From: a virus
Lineage: Duplodnaviria; Caudoviricetes
Virus record (IMG/VR): IMGVR_UViG_3300043105_000102
Coordinates: 32,001-96,000 of that record
Length of the DNA: 64,000 bases
Strand: one strand, 5' to 3'
Below are positions 33,621-42,068 of the stretch, in pieces. The position numbers were made by a program, and so were the translations under genes. The number at the start of each line of letters is the position of its first letter. Position 1 is the stretch's first letter. The notes under the pieces were generated by a model, which made no database searches, was not told where the DNA came from, and saw only the letters and a list, made by a program, of their open reading frames with translations.

Positions 33621-33860
33621 ATGTTTAAAGAAAACTCCGCAGAAGAGCTAACTGAGGAACGTAAACTTAAAGAATATATATATGATAGTTTGTGCTTAAG
33701 ATATAAGATTGCCAGAGAAGCACAGGCAAGACATGAGGTAAATACTCATTATAATGGCAATATAAAAACAGCCATAGAAGCTGCTAAAAGAGATGAAATG
33801 AGATTTTATCAAATTTTGGATGATGTAATTTTTAATATGGAAGGAGGAAATAAAATTTGA
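33621..33860 (+). CDS. Hypothetical protein
   Basis: AAGGA RBS after the promoter. Confidence 0.6.
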   Translation: MFKENSAEELTEERKLKEYIYDSLCLRYKIAREAQARHEVNTHYNGNIKTAIEAAKRDEMRFYQILDDVIFNMEGGNKI

Positions 33861-35382
33861 TTCTTACTAATAAGCAAGAAGAAGGTTTGAAGATTATTGT
33901 AGCCAGATACAAAGCAGGAGAAAAATATACTGTTGTATCTGGCTACGCTTAAAAGCTGGTGTCGGTAAAAGCGTTTTAGTTAGATTTGCTGTTGAAGCTT
34001 TGGGGGTGCCAGAAGATACAGTAGCTTATGCTACATATACGGGCAAGGCCGCCGAAGTTTTACGCAAAAAGGGTAATAAGGGGGCTATCACACTTCATAA
34101 GCTTCTATATAACTGCTATCCTCGTAAAGATGGCGGATTTTATAGAGAACCTAAAAAATATTTGGACTATAAAGTTGTTGTTGCTGACGAGTGTAGTATG
34201 ATCCCTAAGACTATGGTAGACCTTCTTTTGAAGCATAATGTTTATGTATTATTCTTAGGTGACCCGTTTTAAAGCACTGGGACGGGCTAAAATAATCTAA
34301 TTGCGGGAACCTCCTGAGAGTTCACTCTACTAACTTATTATAGTGATATGAATAAGGGCAAAGGGTAATGCCGGAGATTTAAGTAAAAACGAGTGAAATT
34401 GGACAATCCGCAGCTAAGTTTCTAAAAGGTTTTAGAAAAAAGTTCAACGACTATCGAAAAGTATTTAATTACTGAGTAGAGTACACTGCAAGTTTATGGC
34501 AGTGGAAATGGTTATCCTAGAAGATATAGTCTGCTCTCACGAGAAATTGTGAGCTTGGATATTCCAAGAGATAAGGTTTGCGCCCTTATCTAAACAGGGA
34601 GGCAGCTCCCACCAATAAATAAAGATGAAGCAAATGACCTTCTAGAGCATCCTCATATCTTTCTTGATGAAGTATTGCGCCAAGCTGCTGACTCAGAAAT
34701 TATTCGAATGACTATGAAAATCCGTAACAATGAGCCTATTCCTTATTTCAAAGGAACTGATGTTATGGTAATTCCAAAAGCAGAGTTAGTAAACTCTTGT
34801 TATACTTGGGCCGATCAAGTATTGGTCGCCACGAATAGGACTAGAAAATCTATCAACACTCAAGTTAGAAAGATGAAGGGACTCAGTGGGTTGCCGCAAG
34901 ATGGAGACAAGATTATCTGTTTGTCAAACTATTGGGACGATATTTCTATGACCGGAGATGCCCTAGTAAATGGCACTACTGGAACTGTACGCAACCCGGT
35001 AGGAAGAGTAAAGAAGGTTCCTTATTTCTTTAATATTCCCGAAAATTCCATTCATAGCATCCAATTCGACTTTGAAACAGAAGAAGGCTCTTGTTTCAGT
35101 GGCATTGAAATGGATGAAAAATTAATTCAAACTGGAAGAAAGGCTGTTGAAGATTATAGTGTTGCTTATCGTTTGAAAAGCTACGAAAAGAAAACCGGAG
35201 AAGAGTTTATTCCCAAAGAGTTTGACTATGGGTATGCTATTACGACTCATAAAGCCCAAGGTAGTTCTTGGCCAAAAGTACTAGTAATAGAAGAGCATTT
35301 TCCAACTATTCAAGAGGAACACGCCCGCCATTTGTATACTAGCTGTACAAGAGCTTCTTCTCGGTTAGTTTTGGTACGTTAA
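33857..35382 (+). CDS. Dda/RecD-like SF1B helicase; segments 33857-33949, 33958-34269, 34603-35382 (394 aa if the 8-nt gap is skipped and the intron spliced)
   Basis: AGGAGG RBS plus TTG; LT.KQ, GYA[8 nt]GVGKS, TGKAA, TLHKLLY, DECSM, GDPF|QLPP, RQ, YAITTHKAQGS, YT..TRA. Confidence 0.85.
34270..34602 (+). mobile_element. Group I intron, ORF-less (333 nt), in the Dda-like helicase (boundaries could both shift 1 nt left)
   Basis: CCCGUUU pairs with GGACGGG; AATTGCGGGAA, AATCCGCAGC, TTCAACGACTA, AAGATATAGTC; terminal G. Confidence 0.9.
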
Positions 35383-35948
35383 TGAATTTAGTAACAATTG
35401 ATTTCGACATAATTATGGCGCCTAGCATTGAAAGTTATAATAATCAAGTTTCTACTAGTCGGCCAATAGAAAAGATAAAAGAAGATTTTCCTTTTCTTCC
35501 AGAGTTTCCGGCTGATTTGTATATCTATGAGTATCTTACGAGATATATTTTAAGTGTTGCTAAACAGAATAAGAAAATATATTTTATTGACGACCATAGT
35601 GAAGTAGTTCAATTTTTTGAGACGCCCCCTTATAGCCTGTATAATATAGACCACCATCATGATATAGGCTATAATTGGGGAGCTTCACGTGATTGCGGCA
35701 ATTGGGTAAGATTTCTTTGGAAAGAAGGAAAAATTACTTCTTACACTTGGATAAACGATGAAAATTCTCAAAAAGCGCCAAAAAGAATCCAAAAGTACTT
35801 AACAGAAGAAAAGAACATTAGAGAGACTAATTTAGAATTATTAGCGCCAGAAACAGATGTTTTGGTATTATGTGCCTCTTATGAATGGGTGCCGCCCCTG
35901 TACCATCCTTTATTTTTGGCGTGGAAAACCATGATTGAATTTATCTAA
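35382..35948 (+). CDS. Hypothetical protein (UPF0489/arginase-like metal motif)
   Basis: TIDFD, NID.HHD, CGNWV. Confidence 0.55.
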   Translation: MNLVTIDFDIIMAPSIESYNNQVSTSRPIEKIKEDFPFLPEFPADLYIYEYLTRYILSVAKQNKKIYFIDDHSEVVQFFETPPYSLYNIDHHHDIGYNWGASRDCGNWVRFLWKEGKITSYTWINDENSQKAPKRIQKYLTEEKNIRETNLELLAPETDVLVLCASYEWVPPLYHPLFLAWKTMIEFI

Positions 35949-35963: not shown

Positions 35964-35993
35964 AGTAATAGTAAAGGGGATGATTAACACATT

Positions 35994-38900
35994 ATGAAGA
36001 TACGAAACTACCCCGGTAGCCTTCATAATCACTAGATACTGATTATAGTAATTTGCGACTTCGTGACTCTATTAACCGATATGATAAGCTTATTGATTAT
36101 GCTATTGAGTTAGGCCACGAAGTTATTGCTTTTACAGAGCATGAATCAGTTTCTAATGCGGTAAAAATCCAAAAGTATTACAAGAAGATTAAGTCCGACC
36201 ATCCCGATTTTAAAGTAATTCTGGGTAATGAGATTTATCTATGCCGAAATGGATTAAATAATGAAAATTTTGTTTCGGGAGAAGATAGATATTGGCACTT
36301 TATACTTTTGGCGAAAGATGCTATTGGCCATCAGCAAATAAGAGAAATTTCTACTAGAGCGTGGAAGCGTTCCTATAAGGCTAGGGGAATGCGGCGAGTC
36401 CCCACTTATTATCAAGATCTTGAAGAAATAATTGGGGCTAATCCCGGCCATGTTATTGGGTCTAGTAGTTGCCTTGGCGGCTATTTACCTTTTTTAATTC
36501 TTAAATATAGAGATAGCAGCAGCGACCAACTCTTATGGCTAGAAAGAATTAACCAATGGACTAATAGTATAGAACAGATTTTCGGAAAAGGAAACTTCTT
36601 TTTAGAGCTTCAGCCCTCAGAATCAAAGGAACAAACTTATGTAAATGAGTTTTTGGTTTCTTTTTCCTCTCAGGCAAATATTCCATATATTATCACAACG
36701 GATTGAAAAATAATGCTTATGAAGATTATTAAAGGAATAGAAGGAGGTGAAAAAATGCGTAGTTTAAAGTCTTTTTCGGCAGAAGAAAAACAGCAAATTT
36801 TGAACGATAAAAGAGAAAACCCATTCAAAAGATATTAGATAAAATCTATAGTAACGTACCCTTTTTTGCTTAAAGCGAAAATACATAAGCATTATAAATG
36901 ACAGTCGAGTTAAGCTGTGAAGCTTAATGTTAATCCCCGCTAACCCAGATTGCAATGGGGTGTGAGCCAATGGCTTGCTAACGGTTGAACTCCTGCAAAG
37001 GACAATCCCGTGCTAAATTACTGTAAAGTATAAATGTGTAACGACTAGTTCGGAGGAACGTAGAATGGAGATGCTACCATTCGAAAGACGGGGCATCTGT
37101 TTGAAGCAGCAGATGAAAATATAGTCTATTCTTTATAGCAATATAAAGTATTAAAGAGTCATTATGCTAGAAGGGAAGATAGACCAATTCATAAGGCCTA
37201 TTTGAATGCAGAAGATGGCGATAGAGAAGTTGATTCTTTTTATGCAACGACTTATATGATGGATACAGAGGAACTAGAGAGCCATTTAAGCTTAACAGAC
37301 GAACAACTAGAAATAGCTTATCAGAATATTAGGAAAATAAAAGAAATGTGTTCTGATTATAGCCTGTTAAAGCCTTTGAAGATTCCTGAGTTAGTTTGGA
37401 AAGAGCCATCTTATTTAATTAGTCCAAGCACTTATTATAAACAGATTCCTTATCTTCAAACCTTTGTTGAATCAGAGTATCGTGGAGATAATCTATTGGC
37501 ACAACATGTTGCAGATAGATTATCTTGGGATACAACACTTCAAAATCAAAAAACTTATGATGCACTAGATGAATGTTTAGAGATGACTTGGAAATCATCT
37601 TTAGTCAATAAAACACATTGGAGTGCCTACTATTTAAATCTACAAAAAATAATTGATATTGTCTGGGATGCTGGAAGTCTGGTGGGGCCATCAAGAGGTT
37701 CTGGTACTGGGTTAGTAACTAAGCTCAGTTAAAAATTCGTGAACTATATTGCTCATAGGTGTCTAGTATAATTACTAGGCTAACGGTTCAGAAAGCAGTA
37801 ATGTTATTATGAGTAAGGGAACCTAAGTCTTTAACAAAGATAAGGAAATACCGTGTCAAGTTTGCTGATTATATTAAGCAAAAAGATGTAGAGACTATCG
37901 AAAGGTGTAATAGCTGAGTAGAGTAAAGTGGAAGATGAGCTACCACTTGAAGCGCGAATTACTTATATATTAAGTAAAGAGATAGTCCATGCTATATAGA
38001 AATATATAGTGTTCAGTTGTCTTACTATATGTATTGAATATTATACAGATAAACGCATTGCGTGAAACTACCAAGACAAAAAGTTGGAGATTTCTTAATC
38101 CTAGTCGAGTATCAGTTTTGGATATTGATGTAGATATAGAAGGCTCAAAGCGTGAAAAAGTTTTACAAGCTCTAAGAGATAATTATGGAGAAGATTATGT
38201 AGCTAACGTTATTACTTTTGGCGTTGAAAAGTCCAAATCAGCTATCCTTACTGGTGCAAGAGGACTAGGCATGGACAATAATGACGCACAGTATTTTTCT
38301 TCTTTAATTCCTTCTGACAGAGGTATCACTAGAACTTTACACCAATGTTATTATGGAGATAAAGAAAATGGTTTTGCGCCCATACCTCTATTTGTCAAGG
38401 AAATGGACGAACATCCAGACTTATGGAACGTGGCGCAAAAGATTGAAGGATTGATTTGCCAGATGGGTATTCACGCTGGGGGAGTTATTTTCGTAGATGA
38501 ACCTTTTACCAACTCCACTGGCTTAATGCGGGCGACAGATGGTACAATTATAACAGCTTATGACCTCCATGATTCAGAAGATGTGAGTCAACGAAAGTTA
38601 AGGCTCCTAAATGCTTAATCACTTATCAGTGATGTTATATAGGCTCTTAGAAATAAGGTAAGTAAAAAATACCTATATGGCACCGGGGAAACCTAAGTCA
38701 AAAATGATATGGCAATCCCGGACTAAATTGGGTAGCTTCCAGCTATCCATAAATGTCTATCGACTATCCCTCGGAAGGGGAGTAGAATTACTATTGATAC
38801 GTAATTCAAAACAGCATTCTCTTTAAAAGAGTAAGATATAGTCAGTACCATTGGAAACAATGGAACAATACGCTTATCAAGTACGACCTATTATCGGTTG

Positions 38901-41900
38901 AAGGATTTGATAAAATCCATACTTGCTTAGATTTGCTTTGTGATAATGGATTGGTTGAAAGAAAGCCCACATTAAGAGAAACATATGAATCAACTATTGG
39001 CATTTACAATCTTGAAAGAAAAGATCCTAGAATGTGGAAAATGATTTGGAATCATGAGATCGAATCATTATTCCAAATGGAAAAACAGAGTGGTGTTCAA
39101 GGAATTGCTTTAACAAAGCCTCAAAGTGTAGACGATTTAGCCCACTTAAATTCAGTAATCCGGCTAGTAGCACAAGATAAGGGCGCTGAACAACCACTAA
39201 GTAAATTTGCTCGTTTTAAAAACGATATTACCTTATGGTATAAGGAAATGGAAGATGCCGGATTGACCCAAAAGGAACAAGACCTTTTAAAAGAATATCT
39301 CTCAGGGTCATATGGTATTTGCGAAGCACAAGAACTATTTATGGAGTTAGTTCAAATTCCTGAATGTGGCGGATTTGACTTAAACTGGGCCGACAGGCTA
39401 AGAAAGAGTATTGCTAAGAAAAATCCAGCCGAATTTGAACAATTAACAAAGGAATATTATGCACAAGTTGAAGCCAAAGGACTAAGCCAAAATTTATGTA
39501 AATACGTATGGCAAAATTTGGTCGGGATAAGCCGTGGGTAAAAATTTGCTCCCTGTAATAGAAATATTACTTGAACAATGCCGAGAATTGCTGGAAAGCT
39601 AAGTCGAAAGATATGCCAATCAGCAGCCGAGCCATTTAGCTAATGGAAGGTTCAACGACTATTCAGAAAGAAGTAGGAGAAATCCGAAGTACGGCACATC
39701 GTTATTCTACCATGATTTTAGATTAAAGGAGGTGTAAAAATGGATCAACAACAGATAATTGATTGGTATGTTAAAGATGGATTTTCAATAAATTATATTG
39801 CAAAAAATCTACTACATTGCCGTGCAAGTACTATTAGTAAAATTTTAAAAGAAAATAATATAGTCATTAAAAAAGGCGCTACTAAAAAAGTAAATATTAA
39901 TCAAGAGAAAGAAATTATTGAACTATATACTAAAGAACATTATACGCAAAAAGAATTAGCCGAAAAGTTCCATCGTAGTACTGATACAATTCATAAAATT
40001 CTTATTAAAAATAGTGTAGCTATTATTAGTCAACCCAAGATTAACAAAAATCAAATAGACACTTATTTTGATATAATAGATACAGAAGAAAAAGCATATT
40101 GGCTTGGATTTATTTTCGCTGATGGTAATATTTTTAACAATCAATTAACAATAGAAATTCATGAGCGGGATAGGGAGTTGCTAGAAAGATTTAAAATAGC
40201 GCTAAATTTAAACGGAAAAATTTCTCATAGAGTCAGAAAAAATACTTCTGTATGTTCTGTCAGAGTTGTAAGTAAACATCTATGTGAAACTTTGAGTAAG
40301 TACGGAATAGTACCTAACAAAACTTATGTTACTAAACATTTACCACAAGTTCCTGAAACAATGTTACCACATTTCTTACGAGGATTAATTGATGGTGATG
40401 GTTGGATTAGTACAGACAAATCTGGACATTATCATATTGGGTTTGTTAGTCACTTCCCTTCAGTGTGTGAAGATTTTAAAAGGTATTGCAATATATTAAC
40501 CGATGGAAAATGTAGAGCTGCAATTACACGCAAAGATAAAAATTATTCTGGATATTGTTTTCAAATTCAGAGCAAAGAAGCTACAAAATTGATAGCTACA
40601 ATTTTGTATAAAGACAATACAATTTGTCTTAGTCGAAAGTATCGGAGGGTAGAGCCGTTACTTGACTGAAAAAACGATGAAGATATAGTCTTGGGCGATA
40701 ACCAGTTATGAAAATAACATTCGCTCAGACGGCTTTAATTTGAGTCATACATTAGCATATTCCCTTGTGGCACTCCAAGAGATGAACTTAGCATTTAAGT
40801 ACCCTATTGTTTATTGGAACTGCGCTTGCTTGATAGTTGATAGCGGTAGCGTTGGTTCTGGAACAGATTATAATAAGATAGCTATAGCTATTGGTAAGAT
40901 GCGGAAAGCCAACATTAAAGTTAGTTTGCCTGATATAAACCAATCAGACTTTGGATTCAAACCCGATGAAAAGAATAATAGAATCCTGTGCGGACTTAAG
41001 AGTCTGGCAAATGTTGGCGATGAAGTAGTCATAAAAACTATTGACAACCGTCCTTATGTATCTCCAAAAGACTATTTGGATAAAGTTCATCCTAATAAGC
41101 AAGCTATGATTTCCTTGATTAAAGGAGGGGCTTTTGATTCTCTTATGGATAGAAAGCTTTGCATGGCTTGGTATATTTGGGAAACTTGTAATAAAAAGAG
41201 TAAAATTAACCTACAGAATATGTCGGGATTGATTAGATACAATCTTCTTCCCGAAGAAACAGAAGAACAAGTCATGGCGCGCCGAGTTTATGAGTTTAAT
41301 AGATATTTGAAAAGTAGCTTTAAGCAAGGTGACAAATATATATTAACCAATCGGGCTATTAGCTTTTTGAACGAACTGGGCATAGAACCAAGTTTTGATT
41401 CTGGACTTTATTTACCGATTAAAAAATGGGAAAAGGTCTATCAAAAATGGATGGACGTATTTAGAGAGTGGATGGCCGCCAACCACGATAAAATACTCCA
41501 AAAAGTAAATGATAATGTTTTCCGTGAAGATTGGGAGAAGTATGCTCTTGGTAATTATTCTAGTTGGGAAATGCAATCTTTGTGTTTCTATTATCATGAA
41601 CACGAACTCGCCCATGTTAATAATAATCTTTATGGCTTCGCTGACTTCTCTAAGCTTCCAGAAGAACCAGAAATTGTAAAGACCTTTGGGAGCGGTGGAA
41701 AAATTTTCCAGTTGCATACGATTTGCGGCACTTGTATTGCAAAAGACAAAAACAAGAGTACTGTTAGCTTATTAACTACAACCGGAGTAGTTAATATTAA
41801 GTTCAGAAAAGAATACTTCTCTATTTTTGATAAACGTATCTCAGAAATTGGCGCCGATGGTACTAAACATTGTATTGAAGAATCTTGGTTTAGTAGAGGT

Positions 41901-42068
41901 AGTATGATAGCGGTTCAAGGCATTCGTTCGGGAGATAATTTTGTACCAAAGAAATATAAAAGTTCAAATTCCCATGAGCTATATAAGATTGATAAAGTTT
42001 ATCCTGATGGCCGACTTGCTTTGCGCCATGATAGATATAAAGGAGAGGAGTCTGAAAGTAATGACTAA
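35994..42068 (+). CDS. dnaE: DNA polymerase III alpha; segments 35994-36032, 36038-36703, 37157-37712, 38017-38588, 38873-39539, 40729-42068 (1279 aa)
   Basis: PHP LHNH[5 nt]TDYS, TEH, TTD|SHY; SRGSGTG|F; RFLNP.R...DIDVD; HAGG; |LIKYDLL; FQME; RG|YGFN.SH..AYS. Confidence 0.92.
36704..37156 (+). mobile_element. Group I intron (453 nt), dnaE-I1, with an ORF remnant in the P1 loop
   Basis: GAU|UG pairs with CAGUC near 36902; GCTAACGG, TAACGACTA, AAATATAGTC; terminal G37156. Confidence 0.88.
37713..38016 (+). mobile_element. Group I intron, ORF-less (304 nt), dnaE-I2
   Basis: ACUGGGU pairs with GCUCAGU; GAGACTA, AGAGATAGTC; T|TT restores Phe. Confidence 0.9.
38589..38872 (+). mobile_element. 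Group I intron, ORF-less (284 nt), dnaE-I3
   Basis: GAGU pairs with GCUC; TCGACTA, AAGATATAGTC; terminal G38872. Confidence 0.9.
39540..40728 (+). mobile_element. Group I intron (1189 nt), dnaE-I4, encoding a LAGLIDADG endonuclease
   Basis: AATTGCTGGAA, AATCAGCAGCC, TTCAACGACTA, AAGATATAGTC; T|AC restores Tyr. Confidence 0.92.
39740..40669 (+). CDS. Intron-encoded two-motif LAGLIDADG homing endonuclease with N-terminal HTH repeats
   Basis: WLGFIFADG and FLRGLIDGDG; AGGAGGT RBS. Confidence 0.9.
   Translation: MDQQQIIDWYVKDGFSINYIAKNLLHCRASTISKILKENNIVIKKGATKKVNINQEKEIIELYTKEHYTQKELAEKFHRSTDTIHKILIKNSVAIISQPKINKNQIDTYFDIIDTEEKAYWLGFIFADGNIFNNQLTIEIHERDRELLERFKIALNLNGKISHRVRKNTSVCSVRVVSKHLCETLSKYGIVPNKTYVTKHLPQVPETMLPHFLRGLIDGDGWISTDKSGHYHIGFVSHFPSVCEDFKRYCNILTDGKCRAAITRKDKNYSGYCFQIQSKEATKLIATILYKDNTICLSRKYRRVEPLLD

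Follow-up and report, generated by a model that had tools for sequence, protein, structure and literature searches.

Recurrent stop-led coding gaps in dnaE and a helicase gene of uncultured phages and a proposed short translational bypass

The gene for the alpha subunit of DNA polymerase III (dnaE) in an uncultured tailed phage is split within its conserved N-terminal PHP motif by five nucleotides, TAGAT, which begin with an in-frame stop codon. The analyzed stretch, hereafter the window, comprises bases 32001-96000 (64,000 nt) of the IMG/VR virus record IMGVR_UViG_3300043105_000102 (155,944 bp), which has direct terminal repeats and is rated 100% complete; the GC content of the phage DNA is ~36%. 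Based on comparisons with related phages, TAGAT is probably a functional coding gap that is skipped via a programmed short translational bypass (hop), analogous to that of T4 gene 60 with mobA. The evidence consists of the anatomy of the gap, its recurrence in relatives, its association with hairpins and nuclease genes, and purifying selection on either side of a second gap in a Dda-like helicase gene.

Coding gaps in dnaE and the helicase gene

The 13 codons from ATG 35994 include the HxH of PHP motif I and are directly followed by TAG 36033. This layout, and the restoration of the canonical motif by a 5-nt skip, are as described in an initial annotation made from the sequence alone. In the -1/+2 frame, TAA 36026-36028 is the last stop before an open stretch that spans 36029-36706 and reads TDYSNLRLRDS from ACT 36038. 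Uninterrupted relatives read ...SIHNHTDVSNYRLRD or ...GSLHNH[ST]DYSNLRLRD. The closest dnaE relatives in IMG/VR (64-69% identity) have an unbroken ...GSLHNH[ST]D.SNLRLRD, and relatives in cultured phages (Arcanobacterium TPWB06, Staphylococcus vB-SscS-F1, and Leuconostoc phiLM33_01) have ...SIHNHT..SN.RLRD within the first 20 residues. Since the relatives are uninterrupted, exactly 5 nt are extra in the window, and skipping 36033-36037 restores LHNH-TDYSNLRLRD. The initial annotation had allowed that relatives might also lack the first residues; in the alignment, they carry the LHNH residues without interruption. Conservation of the HxH in the DnaE family is at least 90%, and the 13 codons before the gap are thus needed. 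The first in-frame start downstream of the gap is TTG 36053, from which gene callers annotate the gene (217-aa call).

The same dnaE sequence was found in the Logan assemblies of three runs, with 100% identity in SRR11793810 and SRR11793811 and 99.3% identity over 1139 nt in SRR11792607, the last being a variant strain (8 mismatches in 1139 nt). TAGAT is identical in the three independent assemblies, which excludes an assembly artefact, an alternative that had been raised at the outset. The five nucleotides had also been likened to the start of the gyrB intron, but so short a match is expected by chance.

The initial annotation had reported a companion micro-insertion in the helicase gene. It is real, with the coordinates corrected to a take-off codon at 33947-33949, a gap at 33950-33957, and resumption at 33958. 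Past the gap, the gene reads GGT-GTC-GGT-AAA-AGC, and skipping 33950-33957 aligns it with uninterrupted relatives, which have SGYAGTGKS or SGFAGSGKS. The called helicase open reading frames (ORFs) of two loci (L030 and L031) matched Pfam AAA_19, AAA_30, and UvrD_C_2. A whole-genome frameshift scan against two related genomes detected the helicase and dnaE events only.

Two further features were seen around the dnaE start. A mini-ORF of five codons (ATG ATT AAC ACA TTA TGA; 35980-35997) directly follows an AAAGGGG run resembling a Shine-Dalgarno (SD) sequence, and its TGA overlaps the dnaE ATG (ATGA). Since the SD lies 14 nt from ATG 35994, translation of dnaE may start through coupling with the mini-ORF. 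The dnaE start codon is also part of the 5' arm of a hairpin (see below). Farther downstream, the SRR11792607 variant (L032:1020-1419, compared with 36707-36830 of the window) matches it at 99.3% identity as far as 36827, beyond which, inside dnaE intron 1, the two diverge. Intron 1 of the variant has an ORF with helix-turn-helix (HTH) and LAGLIDADG-like motifs, and that of the window is without an ORF. This amounts to a polymorphism, within one phage population, for the presence or absence of an intron ORF.

Recurrence of the gaps in related phages

The dnaE census covered the best 80 of 557 IMG/VR relatives, and the helicase census covered 78 loci, with 244 relatives existing in IMG/VR. Each dnaE locus was fitted to the consensus YPGSLHNHTDYSNLRLRDSI with one gap permitted, of any length up to 45 nt, and the helicase loci were analyzed in the same way. 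A gap was present in 20 of the 80 dnaE loci, and the other 60 were uninterrupted. Four further contigs, picked on purpose for their late-starting gene calls, all carry a gap that opens with a stop; these gaps measure 5, 8, 10, and 8 nt and fall at three positions of the motif. Among 121 short homologues of DnaE exon 1, ~20 gene calls start inside or past the HxH motif. The dnaE gaps sit at four sites within the 13-codon stretch YPGSLHNHTxYSN, one gap per gene, and their lengths are 4, 5, 6, 7, 8, 10, 11, and 12 nt. Together, the window, the four contigs, and the census gave 19 distinct dnaE alleles at the four sites (Table 1). In the helicase, 21 of 78 loci are gapped by 5-8 nt after the Ala codon of SGYA-GxGKS (Walker A). 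About a quarter of the related genomes thus carry such gaps.

The genome of the window has both devices together. So does IMGVR_UViG_3300035499_000343 (155,986 bp; dnaE locus L037, helicase locus L117), which is among its closest relatives by size and identity and has TAGTGGAGTAT at the same His8 site of dnaE and TGAAATCC in the helicase. Since both of its genes are gapped with other sequences, the pair of devices is kept while the gap sequences turn over. In three other helicase loci (L147, L157, and L173), the sequence upstream of Walker A departs from the consensus (...DYIVTHNTT...), which suggests that a larger insertion, for instance an intron, an intein, or a nuclease gene, lies at this Walker A site or close to it.

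Rules common to the gaps

In all of the ~30 distinct alleles of the two genes, the last canonical codon is directly followed by TAG, TGA, or TAA, with a chance expectation of ~5% per allele. The fitting does not score gap content, and hence this stop-first rule is not built in. The stop directly after the last in-frame codon, pointed out in the initial annotation for the window, is part of the device throughout the alleles. In about half of the alleles, the gap ends in a triplet that is either the take-off codon itself or a synonym of it, as in TCT/TCT (twice), TCG/TCG, CAT/CAT, AAC/AAC (twice), AAT/AAC, GCT/GCT, and GCC/GCA. In the other alleles, two of the three positions of the landing triplet match the take-off codon, the third being counted by base class. 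The exception to this two-position rule is GCC to GTA, for which pairing could run via a middle U.G wobble; for AAT to AGC, a middle G.U wobble could serve likewise. According to our own rough estimate, agreement at two or more positions has a chance of ~0.28 per event, which gives p ~1e-8 for ~14 independent dnaE events. In the window dnaE, CAC and GAT agree at codon positions 2 and 3 only. This partial match had been noted as a concern; it is genuine, but the family answers the concern, since His take-off codons land on NAU or CAA except for the cognate CAT in L061 and L107.

The gap lengths span all three frame classes and include in-frame gaps of 6 and 12 nt that hold a stop, so that the net shift of -1 (+2), which had been taken as a shared property of the two events in the window, is not a rule. 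The flanks of the loci L163 and L164 are near-identical, but their gaps are 7 and 8 nt. This variation in frame class between near-identical genes fits re-pairing, which is frame-independent, and not frameshifting. No conserved sequence was found inside the gaps of either gene. The comparative data strongly support the earlier suggestion that one shared recoding mechanism, not random decay, lies behind the dnaE and helicase events.

Hairpins at the take-off codon

The arms listed in Table 1 form a dnaE hairpin of -9.3 kcal/mol (z -3.8) in the window. Among relatives gapped at the same site, L033 and L037 have the same 5' arm, and L113 has it shifted by 1 nt. A helix of 7-10 bp ending 0-2 nt before the take-off codon was found in 22 of 22 distinct gapped 5' regions of dnaE, whereas the equivalent sites of gapless dnaE have a mean of 4.7 bp and reach at least 7 bp in 4 of 195 (p = 1e-14). 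The helix shifts with the gap site, and the leader and synonymous codons change to match: the arms are AAACTACY/GGTAGTTT at site 6, ATGAAGACT/AGTCTTCAT at site 7, ATTATGAAG/CTTCATAAT at site 8, and ATTGAGTA/TACTCAAT at site 12.

In the helicase, the hairpin is present in all 13 distinct gapped sequences (-17 to -26 kcal/mol), with its 3' arm ending at the take-off codon. It was found in none of the 47 distinct gapless helicases, which gave -1 to -14 kcal/mol (U = 0, p = 4e-8). Compensatory changes occur at 7 of 18 base pairs, a result matched by 0 of 500 shuffles, and 72% of the cells in the helix are paired versus 27-47% in slid controls. RNAalifold on the helicase set found the outer stem only, and the full helix was specified by hand.

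A different hairpin, with the dnaE gap in a loop closed by a 7-bp stem (36025-36031/36040-36046), had been drawn in the initial annotation. This stem does exist but is weak (-3.9 kcal/mol, z -1.1; 32 of 200 shuffles fold as well), and in a 68-nt fold it is outcompeted by the upstream hairpin. It is built from the HNH/TDY codons and is absent in L113 and L037, two of the four same-site relatives, and is not a conserved structure. An A-site stem-loop like that of gene 60 is not evident at the dnaE gap, where the stem has z -1.1.

Selection, mosaic junctions, and upstream genes

In 15 gapped helicases, the ratio of nonsynonymous to synonymous polymorphism (pN/pS) is 0.40 in the 27 codons before the gap (at pS 0.57) and 0.28 in the 60 codons after it; pS is ~0.6-0.7 across the two sides. 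These low values on either side indicate that both parts evolve as coding sequence in their own frames. In the site-6 group of dnaE, the type of stop and the two middle bases of the gap vary, and CAA and YPGSLH are fixed except for synonymous changes in the Pro codon.

In a tree built from the 200 residues that follow the gap, the gapped dnaE genes are scattered; 16 changes are needed, at least seven of them forced by supported branches. Several genes are near-identical downstream but differ in gap state or site: L040/L041 versus L042/L043, L061/L107 versus L052-L057, and L034 (site 6) versus L036 (site 12). Such pairs have 90-100% identity from the gap onward, and their upstream sequences are diverged or unrelated, with the break exactly at the gap. 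The break is clear in L040/L042, L061/L052, L107/L055, and L034/L036; the window has no near-identical gapless partner. The gap thus appears to mark a mosaic junction, at which a replaced 5' segment would bring its own leader, hairpin arm, and synonymous codons.

Directly upstream of dnaE lies a gene with GIY-YIG and HTH domains in L061, L107, L113, and L075 (split in the last) and an HNH gene in L051 and L036. Such free-standing nuclease genes are present at 6 of 25 gapped loci and at 0 of 60 gapless loci (Fisher p = 4e-4). In the window, an ORF at 35382-35948 lies between the helicase gene and dnaE, the position at which relatives carry GIY-YIG/HNH nuclease or methyltransferase genes. The upstream ORFs of the window and L033, which have the same gap site, are unrelated, so the two share no common cassette.

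Proposed bypass mechanism

The following mechanism is proposed from the sequence comparisons. Translation would begin at ATG 35994 and proceed until peptidyl-tRNA-His is on CAC (36030-36032) in the P site with UAG in the A site, where the ribosome would pause. The anticodon would then release, the mRNA would slide by 5 nt, and the tRNA would re-pair with the near-cognate GAU (36035-36037) at codon positions 2 and 3. Decoding would resume at ACU 36038 and give one DnaE chain with LHNH-TDYS intact and the junction peptide NYPGSLHNHTDYSNLR. At take-off, the 3' arm of the hairpin would be in the E-site/exit region, and its pairing with the exposed 5' arm could bias the mRNA forward. The helicase probably uses the same device, GCU-UAAAAGCU-GGU, in which a 14-bp hairpin precedes the gap and the landing codon is a perfect match, and its junction peptide would be YTVVSGYAGVGK. 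The gaps probably owe their origin and persistence to being the ends of cassettes, of the recombination or homing-endonuclease kind, that replace the 5' gene end, and a gap may disrupt the conserved target of the nuclease, as in T4 mobA/gene 60, and so confer immunity.

Several points weigh against the proposed hop. At the first codon position, the anticodon of tRNA-His does not pair with the landing GAU. The dnaE hairpin is modest (-9.3 kcal/mol) and its 3' arm is inside the ribosome at take-off, which makes its mode of action a conjecture. With 13 residues before take-off, the nascent chain is too short for a tunnel signal of the gene 60 type. Hops without stimulators, in the work of Weiss et al. 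from 1987, reportedly reach ~1% in E. coli, and the efficiency here may likewise be low. The gapped helicase 5' ends may derive from one ancestral cassette, and this weakens independence in the hairpin statistics. Since many gapped and gapless pairs are nearly identical downstream, some gaps must be young and not long-selected. In addition, the 188-aa ORF upstream of dnaE in the window has no Pfam or PHROG match, that is, no recognizable homing endonuclease stands beside dnaE, and the nuclease link is therefore drawn from the relatives only.

Alternative explanations

Termination at TAG followed by reinitiation, in which the 13-codon ORF would be a mere leader and translation would restart at TTG 36053 or another start, is unlikely. 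The product would be a DnaE without the HxH of PHP motif I. The use of TTG 36053 by gene callers as the first in-frame start is in keeping with this idea, as are the TTG or GTG that overlaps the stop in some relatives (cATTGAc in L034) and the tolerance of E. coli DnaE for a degenerate PHP site (PMC3666897). However, TTG 36053 has no ribosome-binding site, and a strong SD precedes the upstream ATG in relatives. Reinitiation also leaves the cognate landing triplets and the hairpin at the last sense codon without reason, and it does not sit well with the conservation of the HxH or with alleles of one gap cassette that differ in their YPGSLH codons by synonymous changes only. In the helicase, the 31 upstream codons are under purifying selection, and a restart, for which no start codon is nearby, would lose half of Walker A. 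A mixture of conventional recoding events is quite improbable. It would require a -1 frameshift here (LHNH-LD-TDYS, product NYPGSLHNHLDTDYSNLR), +1 frameshifts for gaps of 4, 7, and 10 nt, and readthrough for those of 6 and 12 nt. The net shift in the window is indeed -1/+2 and the stop might serve as a "shifty stop," but there is no slippery heptamer (CAU AAU CAC UAG) and the 3' stem is weak. TAA 36026-36028 closes the -1 frame and confines the shift to one codon, where tRNA-His cannot re-pair. The shift would add residues to a metal-binding motif that is never interrupted in relatives; moreover, near-identical genes switch frame class, and three mechanisms would be needed for one anatomy.

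The possibility that the gap is removed from the RNA, as a micro-intron, a collapsed group I intron, or by cleavage and ligation in a hairpin loop, is slighter still. The two genes do contain five genuine group I introns, and the gap can be drawn in a hairpin loop. Gaps of 4-12 nt are nevertheless too small for a ribozyme core, the Rfam model RF00028 matches only the five true introns and none of the gaps, and the loop hairpin has the weakness and patchy distribution given above. The stop-first rule and the codon-matched ends would be unexplained, and the gaps have no conserved internal sequence. The "collapsed introns" of the initial annotation are therefore not supported, as the micro-gaps have no intron features and their lengths, stop-first structure, and codon-matched ends fit re-pairing. 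Least probable is a dead gene or an artefact, that is, a disabling indel or assembly error in a defective or host-dependent phage. The sequence comes from a metagenome assembly without an isolate, and the youth of some gaps would also be compatible with decay. Against this stand the agreement of three independent assemblies, the intactness of the rest of dnaE and the helicase gene across five precisely framed introns, the gapping of about a quarter of related genomes under strict shared rules, and the purifying selection on either side of the helicase gap.

Genome context and searches

The phage has a cluster of 12 tRNA genes upstream of the window (genome C1:24060-27659): Thr, Glu, Ala-GGC, Asn, Met, Pro, Arg, Ser (two), Cys, Gly, and Lys. 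No suppressor tRNA, odd-anticodon tRNA, or tRNA-His is among the 12, and quintuplet or suppressor decoding is thus without support. The tRNA-Ala(GGC) decodes GCU, which is the take-off and landing codon of the helicase, and the tRNA-Asn decodes the take-off codon of site 7 in relatives.

When the genome was scanned with a pattern of the full architecture, only the helicase site and chance matches emerged. The scan missed dnaE itself, because version 1 demanded an exact third-base match at landing and version 2 an SD within 16 nt of the start, and it gives no grounds for claiming further sites. The frameshift scan gave a third signal near 147 kb of the genome, which was rejected as an indel in a region that is probably coding on the minus strand and not a hop site. 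There, C1:146800-147400 and G001:108600-109150 are conserved DNA with ~110 nt extra here, perhaps a small intron or another insert, probably within a minus-strand gene. A DNA search of the INPHARED phage collection gave no match, and a scan of metagenome contigs gave just three relatives, which were distant and uninformative.

Table 1. Features of the helicase-dnaE region of the window and gap alleles in the two genes.
Feature	Position	Strand	Remarks
Dda-like helicase, coding part 1	33857-33949	+	TTG start, ...YTVVSGYA; ends with take-off GCT 33947-33949
Helicase take-off hairpin	33899-33946 (arms 33899-33912, 33933-33946)	+	14 bp, abuts take-off codon; -25.9 kcal/mol, z -8.2
Helicase coding gap	33950-33957	+	TAAAAGCT; stop TAA, predicted landing GCT 33955-33957 = take-off codon
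Helicase past gap	33958-35382	+	GVGKS..., resume codon GGT 33958; one group I intron ~34259-34553
5' arm of dnaE take-off hairpin	35991-35999	+	ATTATGAAG, ATG included; 9-bp helix with 36021-36029
dnaE (Pol III alpha)	35994-42068	+	PHP, DNA_pol3_alpha, finger, and HHH domains in order across pieces
dnaE coding part 1	35994-36032	+	13 codons, MKIRNYPGSLHNH, including HxH of PHP motif I
3' arm of dnaE take-off hairpin	36021-36029	+	CTTCATAAT; ends one base before take-off codon
Putative take-off codon of dnaE	36030-36032	+	CAC (His13); last frame-0 codon matching relatives
dnaE coding gap	36033-36037	+	TAGAT; stop TAG 36033-36035, proposed landing triplet GAT 36035-36037
dnaE exon 1 past gap	36038-36706	+	Resume codon ACT, TDYSNLRLRD..., PHP domain; Pfam PHP E 3.5e-20, alignment with relatives
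Remaining dnaE	36707-42068	+	Exons within 37139-37732, 38010-38618, 38798-39541, 40689-42068; splice sites approximate
Four group I introns of dnaE	36884-37148, 37756-38009, 38614-38864, 39534-39696	+	Rfam cores
LAGLIDADG ORF	39740-40669		In last dnaE intron
dnaE alleles after His6			TAGTGCAA, TAGTTCAA, TGACCCAA, TGACTCAA, TAGTTTATTCAT
dnaE alleles after Asn7			TAGC, TAAAC, TGAAC, TAGGGAGC, TAGGGTGAAC
dnaE alleles after His8			TAGAT (window), TGAAT (L033), TAGCTAT, TAGTGGAGTAT
dnaE alleles after Ser12			TAGTCT, TAGTTCT, TAGTGTCG, TAGAAGAACT
Helicase alleles			TGAAATCC, TAAAAGCA, TAAAAGCT, TAAATGCA, TAAAGGCA, TAAGTA, TAGGTA, TAAGGTA, TAAACT, TAACT, TAGTT

Comparison with known bypass systems

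The T4 gene 60 bypass and the mobA cassette, reportedly the subjects of Huang et al. in 1988 and Bonocora et al. in 2011, have the same architecture as the nuclease gene and mosaic break at the gap in the relatives; in the window, the nuclease is not recognizable. The gap of gene 60 is 50 nt, compared with 4-12 nt here, and its A-site take-off stem-loop, SD-like GAG, and long nascent-peptide signal are not evident here. In the mobA/gene 60 element, the landing codon marks the end of the insert, which includes a divergent homologous segment (Manning & Atkins, bioRxiv 10.1101/2022.08.31.505936). A 5' stem-loop of gene 60, 9 nt from the take-off codon, has been proposed as the "driver" of the forward slide (bioRxiv 10.1101/2024.12.09.627546). 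The hairpin described here is 0-2 nt from the take-off codon, unlike the stem-loop 9 nt upstream in gene 60. Landing here can be near-cognate (CAC to GAU), and both the genes (dnaE and the Dda-like helicase) and the nucleases (GIY-YIG and HNH) differ. No homology to the gene 60 cassette was seen, although no search was aimed at such homology.

In the terminase gene of Streptomyces phage phiHau3, two 10-nt inserts after a rare UUA codon have been proposed and partly verified as short bypasses, and the junction peptide was detected by mass spectrometry in E. coli (PMC10732093). The two systems share short inserts in an essential phage gene, a slow A-site codon, nearby stem-loops, and a landing codon. 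The pause codon of phiHau3 is a rare sense codon tied to host physiology, seen in a few related (pro)phages, whereas that of the present gaps is a stop. The fixed hairpin position, the dozens of alleles in two genes, and the links to mosaic junctions and nuclease genes also set the present gaps apart from phiHau3.

Weiss, Dunn, Atkins, and Gesteland are said to have obtained "stop hops" of +5/+6 in E. coli reporters in 1987, using synthetic constructs with yields of ~1% and no stimulatory structure. In those hops, as proposed here, peptidyl-tRNA leaves a codon beside a stop and re-pairs 5-6 nt downstream, independent of frame; unlike them, the present sites are natural, conserved, structured, and in essential genes. 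The mitochondria of Magnusiomyces capitatus reportedly have GC-rich, structured byp elements of 27-55 nt (Lang et al. 2014, cited in PMC10732093). Like the gaps here, byps are numerous in nature, mobile, and bypassed, interrupt conserved genes, and have take-off and landing codons that match. They belong to mitochondrial translation and, unlike the present gaps, are not known to be associated with homing endonucleases or with a 5' hairpin next to the take-off codon. In the literature on gene 60, phiHau3, and recoding reviews, nothing was found on bypass gaps in DnaE or Dda-like helicases.

Implications

We lean toward the view that a modular, transferable device, in which a sense codon abutted by a hairpin is followed at once by a stop, with a gap of up to 12 nt and a cognate or near-cognate landing triplet, is routine across a large clade of uncultured phages whose hosts are probably Firmicutes. 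Homing-endonuclease or recombination cassettes would plant it in catalytic motifs (PHP HxH of DnaE and Walker A of the Dda-like helicase), where it would shield the site from cleavage and be hopped by ribosomes that tolerate first- or middle-position mismatches. Programmed translational bypassing is textbook-rare, being known from T4 gene 60 and its homologues, the yeast mitochondrial byps, and one partly verified phage terminase. The window and its relatives would add a much shorter version, represented by dozens of natural alleles in two essential genes, and if this is true, short-range bypassing is a common natural decoding mode and not a T4 curiosity. The natural variation is what an experimenter would design: gaps of 4-12 nt, three stops, cognate versus near-cognate landing, and a hairpin that tracks the take-off codon. 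The take-off trigger, the driver of the forward slide, and the strictness of P-site re-pairing thereby become directly testable. For annotation, gapped genes are called as truncated genes or pseudogenes, as with the 217-aa call from TTG 36053. For phage mosaicism, the junctions fall inside conserved motifs, and in the arms races with homing endonucleases, the gap may mark immunity to cleavage.

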